This document shows positions 24,820 through 63,912 of a DNA stretch of 64,000 bases, piece by piece. A program made the position numbers and the translations under genes. The stretch lies in the NCBI GenBank assembly GCA_964464695.1, contig CAYXKW010000006.1:2489-66488 (forward strand). Reading direction: 5' to 3'. The stretch is from an uncultured Candidatus Saccharibacteria bacterium. GTDB taxonomy: Bacteria > Patescibacteriota > Minisyncoccia > Phycocordibacterales > UBA5272. The notes beneath the pieces are model-generated. The model had not been told where the DNA came from. It made no database searches and saw only the letters and a list, made by a program, of their open reading frames with translations. The first letter of the stretch is position 1. The number at the start of each line of letters is the position of its first letter.

Positions 24820-24889
24820 TTACTATAAAAGTTCCTCATGCTATACTTACGTAGAAACACACGTAGAGTGTTTCTTTTCAGTTAAAAAT

Positions 24890-24977
24890 GGAGAGATGCG
24901 AGAGTGGTTTAATCGACTACCTTGGAAAGGTAGCAACTGGGTAACTGGTTCGAGGGTTCGAATCCCTCTCTCTCCGC
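24890..24977 (+). tRNA. tRNA-Ser (anticodon GGA), type II with a long variable arm
   Basis: Acceptor GGAGAGA/TCTCTCC, 3-bp D-stem with a long loop, anticodon stem CTACC/GGTAG with loop TTGGAAA, variable arm AACTGG-GTAA-CTGGTT, T-arm GAGGGTTCGAATCCCTC. Confidence 0.85.
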
Positions 24978-25276
24978 AAAATCGCGAGTGTAATCACGAC
25001 CAGATTTTGCGCAGTGCAGAATGGCAAGTGTATCCACGACCACATTCTGCCTCCGCAGTATTATAAAAAATCGCGAATATACTTACGACCAGATTTTACT
25101 AGTGCATTTCAAGGAGCCCTAAAAGATTGCGATTTCAACAGGTTGAGTACAACCTAAGAAATCGGGAACGTACTCGCGACTATGAATATGCCTCCGCAAA
25201 ATCGCGAGTATACTTACGACCAGATTTTGCTAGTGCATTTCAAGGAGCGTAATCGCGACTATGAATATGCCTCCGC
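24973..25276 (+). repeat. Array of degenerate direct repeats that repeat the tRNA-Ser 3' end (CTCCGCA) four times, each followed by an AAAATCGCGAGT.TACTTACGACCAGATTTTGC.AGTGCATTTCAAGGAGC-type module. This is an att-site-like scar array.
   Basis: CTCCGC(A) occurs at 24971, 25050, 25190 and 25270. Near-identical ~55-bp modules sit at 25066-25120 and 25200-25258, shorter variants at 24978-25012 and 25026-25049, and CGCGACTATGAATATGCCTCCGC occurs twice. Each module has an internal 8-bp inverted repeat GCAAAATC/GATTTTGC. Confidence 0.6.
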
Positions 25277-25971
25277 TATTTTGCAAAACAATAGTAAAGG
25301 CCAGCACCACCGGTTGCCTTGAGTGCTTCCAGACTACATCCTCGGGTCAGGTGTGAAGAATTCCACGATTTCATTGGAGCTGAATCATTTGTGCCGATTC
25401 TGTCATGATGACCAACGTATGCCGCACCTGCATTGCTTGATGTCCAGTTAGAGCATGTTGTGTCCGTTGTTGTTGCTACAAGATTTCCATCGCTATCTGA
25501 ACCTGTTAAAATATCGTGTTCATTAGGTGTGTCACCTCTGCCGTTTACAATAACTCCATTTTCGGTGATCGCTGTGGTTTTAGAAAGAAAATTATTAGTA
25601 TGAAGTTCTTCAATTGTGTTGGCAATGAGTTCTCCGTTATAGTTATACCAAGGACCATCCCCAATTCTTTCTCGAGCGTTTATTGCTGGTGAGTTGTTTC
25701 CTGCTGTTGAGCTTAGATAAGCTACCCATGTTTTGCCATAGACCCCGGACGCTTCTGCAAGCGCTGTACAATAAGCATCAGCACCTACCAAGCCACCTAA
25801 GTTTCCGCCGGCACCTTTGTTTTTACTAGTAATAAAGAATGACATTTCTTTTGAAGATTTCGAAGTCTGAGGGCTGTGTGTAGTTCTAGAAGAATAATAC
25901 AAACTAAGTGCGAGTATTAGGATTATCCCTGAAAGTAACAAGTACATCTTTTTTGTTTTAATGTTCTTCAT
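25276..25971 (-). CDS. Hypothetical secreted protein (signal peptide/TM at the N-terminus)
   Basis: MKNIKTKKMYLLLSGIILILALSLYYS signal. No confident domain. Confidence 0.4.
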   Translation of the reverse strand: MKNIKTKKMYLLLSGIILILALSLYYSSRTTHSPQTSKSSKEMSFFITSKNKGAGGNLGGLVGADAYCTALAEASGVYGKTWVAYLSSTAGNNSPAINARERIGDGPWYNYNGELIANTIEELHTNNFLSKTTAITENGVIVNGRGDTPNEHDILTGSDSDGNLVATTTDTTCSNWTSSNAGAAYVGHHDRIGTNDSAPMKSWNSSHLTRGCSLEALKATGGAGLYYCFAK

Positions 25972-36170: not shown

Positions 36171-36731
36171 ATGAAAAAAAATAAACATAATAAACAAAAG
36201 TATCGTTCACAAGAAACACCTGTGAAGTGGTCTTTTGTGGTGCGTGCTGTGCGAAATGTTGGGTTAGGTCTACTTCTTGTTGGTTTGTTTTTTTCAAGTA
36301 TGTATGGGTTTAAGTGTCTCACCACAAAAGTATGTGATTCAATTGTGGTTGATAAGTTCGTACGACATGATCTAACAATCCTTATGCCAAAAGGGGCTCT
36401 TAGTGTAGAGGTTGTAGATACTGTGGCATCTCGAGAATTAGGGCTTTCAGGAAGAACAAAAATGGGAGACGACGAAGGAATGTTATTTATTTTTGACGCT
36501 CCTGGACGGTATGGTTTTTGGATGAAGGATATGGCTTTCCCTTTAGATATTGTTTGGATTAATCAAAATGGTGTTGTTGTGAACATTGAGCGAGATCTTA
36601 CTCCAGAGTCTTATAATCAAAAGAAAACATTTATTAATCAGGCGGACGCAAGTTATGTACTTGAGGTTAATGCTGGCATGGCTGCGAAGTTTGGACTCTA
36701 TCTTGGATCAAAAGTAAAAATTGTCGATTAA
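36171..36731 (+). CDS. DUF192 (COG1430) family protein with an N-terminal TM
   Basis: MLFIFDAPGRYGFWMKDMAFPLDIVWINQNGVVVNI matches the DUF192 signature. Confidence 0.7.
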   Translation: MKKNKHNKQKYRSQETPVKWSFVVRAVRNVGLGLLLVGLFFSSMYGFKCLTTKVCDSIVVDKFVRHDLTILMPKGALSVEVVDTVASRELGLSGRTKMGDDEGMLFIFDAPGRYGFWMKDMAFPLDIVWINQNGVVVNIERDLTPESYNQKKTFINQADASYVLEVNAGMAAKFGLYLGSKVKIVD

Positions 36732-36970
36732 AAATAAAATTTGGCGAACTACTCGACTTTTCTAATATAAGTTTAGTCTCCAACAAAATAAGAAGCACTG
36801 CACTGCGACTATATTTTGTGCAGTACAGAATAATGAGCGTAGCGACTATATTCTGCCGCCCTACCTGCACATAGAACTTTCCAAACATTACATTAGTCCA
36901 AGTCTGCGTATTTCATCCAGAATTTTACTTTTTGTAATATGACTAATTGATTGTGTGGGCATGGAAAAGA

Positions 36971-36996
36971 AAAAGTGGCACCTTGCGGTGCCACTT
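36971..36996 (-). terminator. Intrinsic terminator of rnpB (minus strand: GUGGCACC-GCAA-GGUGCCAC-U5)
   Basis: Perfect 8-bp stem with a GNRA loop and a T-run on the minus strand. Confidence 0.7.
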
Positions 36997-37003
36997 TCCC
37001 ATC

Positions 37004-37348
37004 TTTGTTCTACCTATAAGCCGAATTCTGTCCGTGTGGTTACCCACACTGTGTAATCATGTATCTGGGCGCCGTGTTACCACTTCGCTCAAGCGACGCT
37101 CCCATATTGCTACGGGCACGGTCTTGCACACACGTAAGGATTTAGCCGTTTCAATCTCACCTCTCGGTAAGCATATTCCCGAAGGAATCCTAGCCTTTCG
37201 GCATCGGCGTCACTGCTCGCACCTCTGTAGTTGCCTACGACGGGGGTTACCCGCTACGCTTATTTTATTTAAAAAATTGAGTGTTCGGACTTTCCTCTCT
37301 CAAGGCTACATTTAAAACTGTAAGAGCGATTACCCAGTAGAACGTTGT
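37004..37348 (-). ncRNA. rnpB: RNase P RNA (ribozyme subunit), compact at about 345 nt
   Basis: Minus-strand sequence contains the P4 strands GAGAGGAAAGUCCGAACAC and ACAGAAUUCGGCUUAUAGG, a 5' segment GGGUAAUCGCU as in Bacillus-type RNase P RNA, GGGUAACCCCCG and GUGGUAACACGGCGCC modules, and a P1 helix GUUCUAC (37338-37344) with GUAGAAC (37008-37014). Confidence 0.85.
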
Positions 37349-42243: not shown

Positions 42244-42345
42244 CTACACGCGGGAATCTGTCACAAATCTGCCTCGCGTTGCTCGAAGCAGATTCGCGAC
42301 CCCGTATTCGATTCCCTGTAAGTAACGCAGATCACTTAGTTTCTG
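42244..42345. repeat. GC-rich imperfect palindromic element downstream of tRNA-Arg that carries a tRNA T-arm-like segment (GCGGGAATC) and the GTCACAAATCTGC motif shared with the element at 63575..63840
   Basis: CGCGGGAATCTGTCACAAATCTGC...GCAGATTCGCGACCCCGTATTCGATTCCCTG; arms pair as GGGAATC/GATTCCC and AATCTGC/GCAGATT. Confidence 0.4.
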
Positions 42346-63574: not shown

Positions 63575-63840
63575 AGGATCAAGTCACAAATCTGCTGATT
63601 TGCTTCCCGGAGAATCTTCTACAAGTCCCATGTCGCCGCTCGTCGGACTCGACTTTGCCTCCCGGCATGATTTACTAATCGGCTGCCGCTCGTTCAGCAG
63701 AATGACTCTTGGAGTATGCGATTCGGCCTGCTGGCCTCATAACGCTCTTCCATCGATTCTCCACGCAAGTGACGCAGGTCACTTACTGTGAGGTCACAAA
63801 TATAAGAAACCACCCAACATTGGGTGGTTTCTTATATTTG
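63575..63840. repeat. GC-rich ~260-bp element with imperfect terminal inverted repeats that embed tRNA-Glu T-arm-like segments (CCCGGAGAATC / GATTCTCC) and the GTCACAAATCTGC motif. It abuts the tRNA-Glu 3' end and may be a MITE-like or structured-RNA element.
   Basis: Left end GTCACAAATCTGCTGATTTGCTTCCCGGAGAATC; right end GATTCTCCACGCAAGTGACGCAGGTCAC; then GTCACAAAT begins the perfect palindrome. The core is ~60% GC, against a much lower genome GC. Confidence 0.35.
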
Positions 63841-63847
63841 TGACCTC
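63790..63847. terminator. Perfect 27-bp inverted repeat (58-nt hairpin, 4-nt loop) overlapping the tRNA-Glu 3' end
   Basis: GAGGTCACAAATATAAGAAACCACCCA-ACAT-TGGGTGGTTTCTTATATTTGTGACCTC; the right arm overlaps the tRNA acceptor 3' strand. Confidence 0.55.
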
Positions 63848-63912
63848 ACGGAGAATCGAACTCCGATTACAGGCATGAGAAGCCTGTGTCCTAACCGTTA
63901 GACGATGAGGCC
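63841..63912 (-). tRNA. tRNA-Glu (anticodon CTC)
   Basis: Minus strand: acceptor GGCCTCA/TGAGGTC (one G-U pair), D-arm GTCT-AACGGTTA-GGAC, anticodon stem CAGGC/GCCTG with loop TTCTCAT, T-arm CGGAG-TTCGATT-CTCCG. Confidence 0.8.

Follow-up and report, generated by a model that had tools for sequence, protein, structure and literature searches.

What does it mean when the last bases of a transfer RNA gene recur several times in the non-coding DNA behind it? The question is posed by a 64,000-nucleotide stretch of an uncultured Candidatus Saccharibacteria bacterium (GCA_964464695.1, contig CAYXKW010000006.1; hereafter the window), in which a tRNA-Ser(GGA) gene runs into an array of short repeats that an initial annotation, made without database searches, had taken for stacked integration and excision scars. 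We find that the true repeat is a unit of about 86 nt formed by two hairpins, that these hairpins are under structural selection, that the unit has a patchy, dispersed distribution and is better conserved than the tRNA genes beside it, and that one sample carries a variant junction. The family is confined to a few related, Pacebacteria-like genomes of the Candidate Phyla Radiation (CPR), and the window is itself assigned to a Pacebacteria-like bacterium by its LemA, HtpX, TPM and EamA genes, a GC content of about 38% and the name carried by a homologue (P0094). What mobilises the unit, by which mode, and whether the folded strand is DNA or RNA, we infer from these observations. Tentatively, with a confidence that stops short of calling it probable, we read the unit as a low-copy, dispersed, hairpin-dependent repeat that settles at CTCC(GCA) and accretes into arrays.

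Anatomy and folding of the repeated unit

ARAGORN and Rfam place a tRNA-Ser(GGA) gene where the initial annotation had seen one, and the array reiterated behind it is, as had been claimed, bounded by copies of the last tRNA bases (Table 1). The gene has no encoded CCA; it ends ...TCTCTCC-G, then CA, and these last bases (CTCCG plus CA) form the left boundary of unit 1. Three tandem units of about 86 nt each make up the array, built as CTCC, hairpin 1, GCAGT or TAGT, hairpin 2 and CTCC(GCA). The two hairpins of a unit stand in direct orientation, all hairpins of the array point the same way, and no open reading frame (ORF) lies between them. The insert that splits unit 2 (25118-25164) is itself a 47-nt hairpin, flanked by GGAGC/GGAAC and unique in the window. 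Successive CTCCGC(A) cores are spaced 7-130 nt apart.

Much of the detail first proposed for the array stands. A 33-nt module is present at 24978, 25067 and 25198 with at most three mismatches (shuffled sequence gave no matches), a fourth, degenerate copy at 25012-25050 is 74% identical, two copies each exist of a 51-nt version (96% identity) and of GGARCGTAMTCGCGACTATGAATATGCCTCCGC (94% identity), and each module holds the 8-bp inverted repeat ascribed to it. The heptamer CTCCGCA does recur, at 24972, 25051 and 25192, 1-2 nt off the positions first given; at the fourth site, 25271, only the hexamer CTCCGC is found, followed by T. The expectation that a module follows each copy fails twice, the heptamer at 25051 being followed first by a 7-nt spacer and the hexamer at 25271 by no module at all. 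The layout of a heptamer plus a module of about 55 bp therefore gives way to the two-hairpin unit.

To define the fold, 18 hairpins, taken from the window and from four related contigs, were aligned (alignment A1), and a covariance model (R1) was built from them. Each hairpin spans about 35 nt, with an outer stem of 8 bp (GCA at its start, TGC at its end), an asymmetric internal loop (5′ NNGA / 3′ GACNA), an inner stem of 2-7 bp and a freely variable tip. Standard pairs account for 94.4% of cells and compensatory (double) changes affect 7 of 11 pairs (37 cells); the observed pairing and covariation values are reached by none of 500 shuffles, and sliding the partner columns by 1-3 positions collapses pairing to 20-56%. 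RNAalifold, applied to 11 whole units, predicts both hairpins independently. The unpaired columns A13, G25-A26-C27 and A29 are invariant, and so is the G14-C24 pair closing the inner stem, with G14 present in at least 90% of copies. The hairpins are thus under structural selection. Covariation couples both halves of one hairpin, not half-sites around CTCC or GCAGT, which speaks for a folded single strand, whether DNA or RNA, rather than for a duplex site bound by a protein dimer. R1 scores of 40-55 bits on the plus strand and at most 16.7 bits on the minus strand make the element strand-asymmetric; the near-absence of G-U and A-C cells in A1 (one U-G and one A-C among 196) is compatible with folding of either strand, and of DNA as well as RNA.

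Described structures that came into question for the hairpins were rejected. The GA/GA arrangement, on our own reading of the hairpin alignment, is incompatible with the bulge geometry of a K-turn; a tRNA-derived pseudogene or minihelix lacks support because there is no T-arm and acceptor pairs are possible at only 3 of 7 positions; irregular spacing and an absent partner gene dismiss a CRISPR-like or ToxI-like antitoxin array; and a T-box is discounted by a loop that carries ACCA, not UGGN.

The same array, in the same 456-nt intergenic region, is found in two Joint Genome Institute (JGI) contigs from other samples (L002 and L003), which differ from the window by two substitutions, both upstream of the tRNA, and are identical to it throughout the array; the array is therefore not an assembly artefact. 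Short-read Logan contigs end at the repeat borders, as repeats would predict. One contig from ERR4405439 (L007) joins a unit-2-type half hairpin (ACGTACTCGCG...) straight to the downstream flank, window 25168-25197 being connected to 25277 onward. This junction fits an array shorter by the 79-bp unit 3, or gene conversion between two copies.

Could the repeats have arisen purely locally, by slippage or tandem duplication of a terminator-like hairpin, with neither a family nor a function behind them? Units 2 and 3 are neighbours and 94-96% identical, and the array sits between convergent transcription units, where hairpins are common (the final base of unit 3 overlaps the stop codon of the convergent ORF 25276-25971(-)). 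We consider this origin very improbable. A terminator scan found no site within 24976-25276, a U-tract is lacking, and the internal loops are conserved; unit 1 resembles a unit of another genome (L010, 94%) more than it does its array neighbours, units 2 and 3; and the copies at a second window locus and in four other genomes or contigs exclude duplication that is local only.

Some further features of the region concern the array and its tRNA. An array-free site would have TATTTTGCAAAAC directly behind the tRNA end. A 10-mer with a -10-like TATACT, TATACTTACG, precedes the tRNA (24842-24851) and is found again at 25078-25087 and 25209-25218, within the tips of hp1b and hp1c. Between the upstream 10-mer and the tRNA lies a hairpin, AGAAACAC...GTGTTTCT (24853-24875), which also precedes tRNA-Ser(GGA) in a relative (L029).

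Table 1. Coordinates of the tRNA gene, the array and the solitary unit in the window
Feature	Position	Strand	Parts and evidence
tRNA-Ser(GGA)	24890-24977	+	ARAGORN; Rfam RF00005 54.3 bits
Unit 1, intact, 86 nt	24972-25057	+	R1 scores 54.9 and 49.7 bits
Unit 1, parts		+	CTCC; hp1a 24976-25010; linker GCAGT; hp2a 25016-25050; CTCCGCA 25051-25057
7-nt spacer GTATTAT between units 1 and 2	25058-25064	+	sequence reading
Unit 2, decayed	25065-25198	+	R1 42.9 bits for hp1b; repeat families D2 and D3
Unit 2, hp1b	25065-25099	+	foot mutated (AAA...TAC); then TAGT
Unit 2, second hairpin (hp2c)	25104-25117 and 25165-25191	+	halves split by 47-nt insert
Unit 2, end CTCCGCA	25192-25198	+	
Unit 3, intact	25192-25276	+	R1 scores 53.8 and 39.9 bits
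Unit 3, parts		+	CTCC; hp1c 25196-25230; TAGT; hp2c 25235-25270; CTCCGC 25271-25276
Solitary diverged unit, non-tRNA	36778-36860	+	R1 29.9 bits (E 8.5e-5) and 35.5 bits (E 3.7e-6)
Solitary unit, parts		+	CTCC; hairpin 36783-36819; GCAGT; hairpin 36825-36856; CGCC

Patchy distribution among relatives

The unit-bearing set comprises the window, with two loci, and four other genomes or contigs, and the units follow three tRNA-Ser isoacceptors (GGA, GCT and ACT). In the metagenome-assembled genome (MAG) nzgw467, the locus syntenic with the array (L013) holds tRNA-Ser(GGA), 27 nt, a 54-nt tRNA-Ser 3′ fragment that comes from a different tRNA-Ser(GGA) type, and one unit; on the same contig, L010 reads tRNA-Ser(GCT), unit, 25 nt, tRNA-Ser(ACT), unit. 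The metagenome contigs L017 and L020 repeat this tRNA, unit, tRNA, unit layout, with 19 and 17 nt, respectively, from the unit to the next co-oriented tRNA. In L020 the units begin immediately after the CTCCGCA of tRNA-Ser(GCT), and the L010 and L017 copies of the arrangement adjoin an MscL gene. Both metagenome contigs also carry degenerate, chimeric and tRNA-less units (one non-tRNA unit lies at about 3103-3250 of L017), and truncated and hybrid forms are seen.

No unit was found at the orthologous tRNA-Ser(GGA) locus of four relatives (L024, L025, L027/28 and L029/30), even with the filters of R1 off, and GCA_964516655.1 lacks it at both of the loci examined (L024 and L036). By ThrRS identity the relatives without a unit at tRNA-Ser(GGA) (70-85%) lie nearer to the window than does the unit-bearing nzgw467 (65%), and HtpX and LemA identities place them likewise. 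Unit 1 shares 94.3% identity with the L010 unit that follows tRNA-Ser(GCT) and 91% with the L017 unit; the tRNA-Ser(GCT) genes next to these two are 70-79% identical, that is, less than the units. Local GC content in L017 is mostly 40-57%, against about 38% in the window. Scanning a genome collection returned one real genome (nzgw467, at its two loci) and four chance matches, and a metagenome scan returned two real contigs and five GC-rich chance matches; the latter missed L002 and L003, which bear the pattern, so that the collection is incomplete for such searches. No shared enzyme gene accompanies the arrays: the candidates, a 282-aa protein at L010 and a 324-aa protein at L020, are unrelated.

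The window's second locus is a solitary, diverged unit that follows no tRNA (Table 1); its hairpins were left out of the set from which R1 was built. Its neighbours are a DUF192 gene, which ends at 36731, on one side and the RNase P RNA gene, with its 3′ end, on the other; the unit falls within the 3′ untranslated region of the DUF192 gene, ahead of a terminator hairpin. The unit is common to the window and a sister strain (L035) and is missing at the corresponding locus of L036 and L037; in L036 the DUF192-gene stop codon leads directly into the terminator. The neighbouring RNase P RNA gene, of bacterial class A (37001-37345, minus strand), scores 95.8 bits, below the Rfam gathering score of 100, which is why a default scan missed it. 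The block is kept in L035 and L036, and the gene makes the overlapping 122-aa ORF at 36947-37315 probably spurious.

Does the unit act as RNA? This is the main rival of the dispersed-repeat reading. Precursors of tRNA-Ser, or mRNA 3′ untranslated regions, might contain it as a structured 3′ trailer or spacer, which RNase P and RNase Z would release and which would act as a protein-binding element, a stabilising element or a small RNA; the single-stranded tail of such a small RNA, ...UGCCUCCGCA, has an anti-Shine-Dalgarno-like CCUCC, and extra copies would be tandem duplications. Hairpin covariation together with invariant unpaired bases is what this account would lead one to expect, as are the fixed orientation, the exact abutment on the tRNA 3′ end, and an array that folds much better than its shuffled versions (z = -5.4). 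The unit stands between two co-oriented tRNA-Ser genes in L010, L017 and L020, an order kept in all three contigs and adjoining MscL in two, and the short gap to the next tRNA (17-25 nt) leaves no room for a separate promoter, so that the unit is most likely transcribed within a dicistronic precursor and is not an efficient terminator. The solitary unit, too, sits in a 3′ untranslated region before a terminator hairpin.

We nevertheless judge a role as RNA to be somewhat unlikely. The absence of the unit at tRNA-Ser(GGA) in four closer relatives, and at both GCA_964516655.1 loci, shows it to be dispensable. A covariance search of the array with Rfam 15 returned only the tRNA itself plus sub-threshold matches overlapping it, so the unit belongs to no described RNA family there; the sole weak match downstream of the array, GlsR5, is noise, at 12.5 bits where the gathering score is 100. 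The scarcity of G-U pairs leaves no strand-specific RNA signature, and stems that are nearly invariant between orthologous units and differ between paralogous types fit recognition subfamilies better. The RNA and mobile-DNA accounts are not exclusive. Repetitive extragenic palindrome (REP) elements act both as mobile DNA and at the RNA level.

Several observations concern the tRNA genes themselves. The tRNA-Ser(GGA) genes of close relatives (window, L013, L024, L025, L027 and L029) fall into three types, 78-84% identical between types and 99% within them. These types do not track protein phylogeny, and the position of the gene relative to LemA, TPM and EamA shifts as well (LemA, TPM and EamA, with HtpX, are among its neighbours in the window), which suggests that the gene has been replaced or relocated among relatives. 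In two contigs without hairpin units, a LAGLIDADG homing-endonuclease-like ORF ends in the first bases of tRNA-Ser(GGA) (L027 8976-9653; L028 6935-7612). The tRNA-Ser(ACT) gene stands in tandem after tRNA-Ser(GCT) at L010 2118-2205(-), L017 2183-2269 and L020 542-628; its A34 is unusual in bacterial tRNAs apart from tRNA-Arg(ACG). Between two unit-bearing sites of L017, a GC-rich block of about 230 nt (2395-2630) has strong predicted pairing and no significant Rfam match (HgcC at 17.8 bits only), and could be an undescribed RNA.

Serine recombinases at tRNA 3′ ends

The scar interpretation holds that elements integrated and excised repeatedly at the tRNA-Ser 3′ end, leaving the modules as arms of their attachment (att) sites. 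Relatives of the window do carry such elements. In L040/L041, tRNA-Ser(GCT) is followed directly by an element with genes for a large serine recombinase and an S24 repressor-like protein, and the L040 junction falls immediately after CTCCGCA, the place at which the L020 units start behind the same tRNA type. Recombinases 77% and 71% identical to the L040/L041 enzyme are encoded on IMG/VR contigs L047 and L048, respectively, each of which ends in tRNA-Ser(TGA) in the same arrangement. In L044 (GCA_964369115.1, 6738-8487) an element encoding a 571-aa large serine recombinase starts exactly after tRNA-Glu(CTC), and L043 and L045, strains without it, provide the clean empty counterpart. The claim that tRNA 3′ ends are integration sites in this lineage is thereby upheld; that of tyrosine integrases is not, the enzymes found at these ends being serine recombinases. 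The attachment sites of serine recombinases share only short cores, so that even a 7-nt repeat is compatible with scars. The 54-nt displaced tRNA-Ser 3′ fragment that precedes the unit in L013 (the window has none) points the same way, as do the gene content beside these tRNAs, which differs among relatives, and a restriction-modification methylase behind the L020 array.

Other results tell against scars. The three tRNA-Ser junctions, read at the tRNA side only, share a P′ arm, ACAAT-N(4-7)-TATCGG-N-GT, that is unrelated to the unit; its motif ACAAT-N(4-7)-TATCGG occurs only at the three attL junctions and is absent from the units. R1 has no matches in any recombinase or viral locus, and no attP of the L040 element was present in the viral stretches examined. 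IMG/VR was scanned with five patterns (the module, the tRNA end with the module, the linker between hairpins and the unit ends, all taken from the unit or its linker, as well as the P′ arm of the L040 element), each giving no match or chance matches only; BLAST of the array against phage and plasmid collections gave none. Compensatory changes within hairpins are unlike the evolution of a double-stranded recombinase site, units lie at non-tRNA sites, and only 7-130 nt separate the cores. What recurs of the tRNA is 6-7 nt, not the classic reiteration of a tRNA 3′ end, and a junction at CTCCGCA is expected for any sequence that follows a tRNA. No integrase was found among the window ORFs scanned, the two next to the array included, as the initial annotation had noted for the latter.

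We therefore regard the scar interpretation of the array as partly supported and, as an account of its origin, unlikely: hairpins under structural selection, unlike the P′ arms and present away from tRNAs, do not look like the decayed remnants of elements. The alternative that the initial annotation had named was a structured element conserved lineage-wide at this tRNA and never associated with integrases or phage; the lack of such an association is what we find, and the unit is not lineage-wide at tRNA-Ser(GGA).

A tRNA-Glu(CTC) gene is also present in the window (63840-63912), and all four short contigs that include its neighbouring gene stop inside it or just after it; given the L044 element, this tRNA-Glu 3′ end may also be a strain-variable integration site. 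An 18-nt hairpin, AAGTGAYCTGCGTYACTT, has two copies only in the window, at 63767-63784(-), 56 nt downstream of tRNA-Glu(CTC), and at 42320-42337(-), 65 nt downstream of tRNA-Arg(CCT). On the tRNA strand, the two differences between the copies convert two pairs to G-T wobbles. This hairpin may be another small tRNA-trailer element.

Known systems, the favoured reading and what it would mean

One likeness is to the REP elements, their composites (bacterial interspersed mosaic elements, BIMEs) and REPINs, repetitive extragenic palindromes mobilised by RAYT Y1 transposases (PMC2817692, PMC3116915, PMC3733652). Like REP/BIME sequences, which are extragenic imperfect palindromes of 20-40 nt, the hairpins of the unit are imperfectly palindromic, measure about 35 nt and occupy extragenic 3′ regions, frequently with convergent genes on either side; they cluster in composite arrays and divide into sequence subfamilies with conserved stems and structure. 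Unlike them, the unit lacks the GTAG or CGTC tag (its flanks are CTCC, GCAGT or TAGT), keeps its hairpins in direct rather than alternating orientation, is seen at low copy, and has a 4x5 internal loop, a variable tip and a precise association with tRNA-Ser 3′ ends; no RAYT/Y1 transposase was found among the scanned window ORFs. Genomic islands that leave attachment-site repeats at tRNA genes, through tyrosine or serine integrases (Islander, PMC4383910), share with the array an intact tRNA, terminal bases repeated distally and a locus that varies among relatives; in related genomes the same tRNA ends are occupied by genuine recombinase elements. The array differs in its 6-7-nt repeat, in having neither an integrase nor cargo between the repeats, and in modules that are selected hairpins found also away from tRNAs. 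The displaced 3′ segment repeated at tRNA islands is usually well over 10 bp; in the window only CTCCGC(A) recurs, and the units lack the arm that defines the attachment-site family of L040, L047 and L048.

Other comparisons are as partial. The ends of IS200/IS605 elements and of their miniature derivatives carry subterminal hairpins in the same orientation on one strand, and an insertion of that type beside a short sequence, without true duplication, would yield CTCC|GCA...CTCC|GCA; the hairpins of the unit, though, abut the putative cleavage sites, with no room for guide sequences, and have large loops, and a Y1 transposase was not found. Miniature inverted-repeat transposable elements have terminal inverted repeats and target-site duplications, whereas the halves of the unit are direct repeats and the only flanking direct repeat is CTCC(GCA). 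Nor is the unit an intrinsic terminator, lying as it does in relatives just 17-25 nt upstream of a co-oriented tRNA. The unit meets the full definition of none of REP/BIME, attC, IS200/IS605 or integrase repeats, and we found no description of it in the literature. We take it for a small structured extragenic repeat, here with a proposed docking at a tRNA end.

The comparison with integron attC sites suggests a further possibility. By analogy, the double hairpins might be folded single-strand recombination sites, attC-like but with a sequence of their own, that define exchangeable cassettes at tRNA-Ser loci, the cassette being either a tRNA-Ser gene plus unit or the unit alone. Like attC, each hairpin has a basal stem, an unpaired central spacer, a second stem and a variable terminal structure, structure is conserved more than sequence, and the copies form tandem arrays. 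If true, this would explain the phylogeny-independent spread of the three tRNA-Ser(GGA) types among close relatives, the tandem of tRNA-Ser(ACT) with tRNA-Ser(GCT), and the shuffling of hairpin types with a distal pile-up of tRNA-less units. We think it distinctly unlikely. From attC sites proper the unit is set apart in several ways: there are no RYYYAAC/GTTRRRY core sites (the stem feet read GCA.../...TGC), each unit has two hairpins, and neither an IntI/attI platform, nor ORF cassettes, nor a nearby tyrosine recombinase is found.

We return, then, to the reading of the unit as a dispersed repeat. It draws on a distribution that is patchy and extends to further genomic contexts, on units better conserved than the flanking tRNAs, on shuffled hairpin types and on the ERR4405439 junction. 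The unit would spread as DNA, by insertion or by short-homology or site-specific recombination at CTCC(GCA), of which the invariant tRNA-Ser 3′ end (acceptor CTCC plus discriminator G) would be the best-conserved example. A protein would recognise the hairpins on single-stranded nucleic acid, and arrays would grow by accretion at the distal CTCCGCA and grow or shrink by unequal recombination between units. As the tRNA's own CTCC doubles as the left boundary of the unit, the tRNA stays intact.

Several results weigh against this reading. Only two unit loci occur within the 64 kb. Scans of 30 window ORFs, of the two that adjoin the array and of ORFs beside units at other loci revealed no recombinase or transposase domain, nor do the Pfam assignments of the ORFs called from HtpX to NUDIX include one. 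The unit has no terminal inverted repeats, and no clean filled/empty pair was obtained at single-unit resolution, the L036 difference being 232 nt with the unit in its middle. The succession tRNA-Ser(GCT), unit, tRNA-Ser(ACT), unit is kept in all three contigs in which it was seen, which vertical inheritance under constraint fits as well as mobility does, and the high identity of units between genomes could come from purifying selection on RNA rather than from recent spread.

In CPR (Patescibacteria) genomes, which have few recognisable mobile elements, small structured repeats and the enzymes that mobilise them are essentially uncharted. Unit loci break short-read assemblies of these genomes. 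Large serine recombinases of this clade are shown to use tRNA-Ser and tRNA-Glu 3′ ends as attB sites, and the candidate integrase/attB pairs could become genetic tools for organisms that currently have none. If the favoured reading is true, a hairpin unit that docks on an invariant tRNA-Ser end and leaves it undamaged would be a new solution to the problem of a safe landing site, one that integrases solve with much longer copies of the tRNA.

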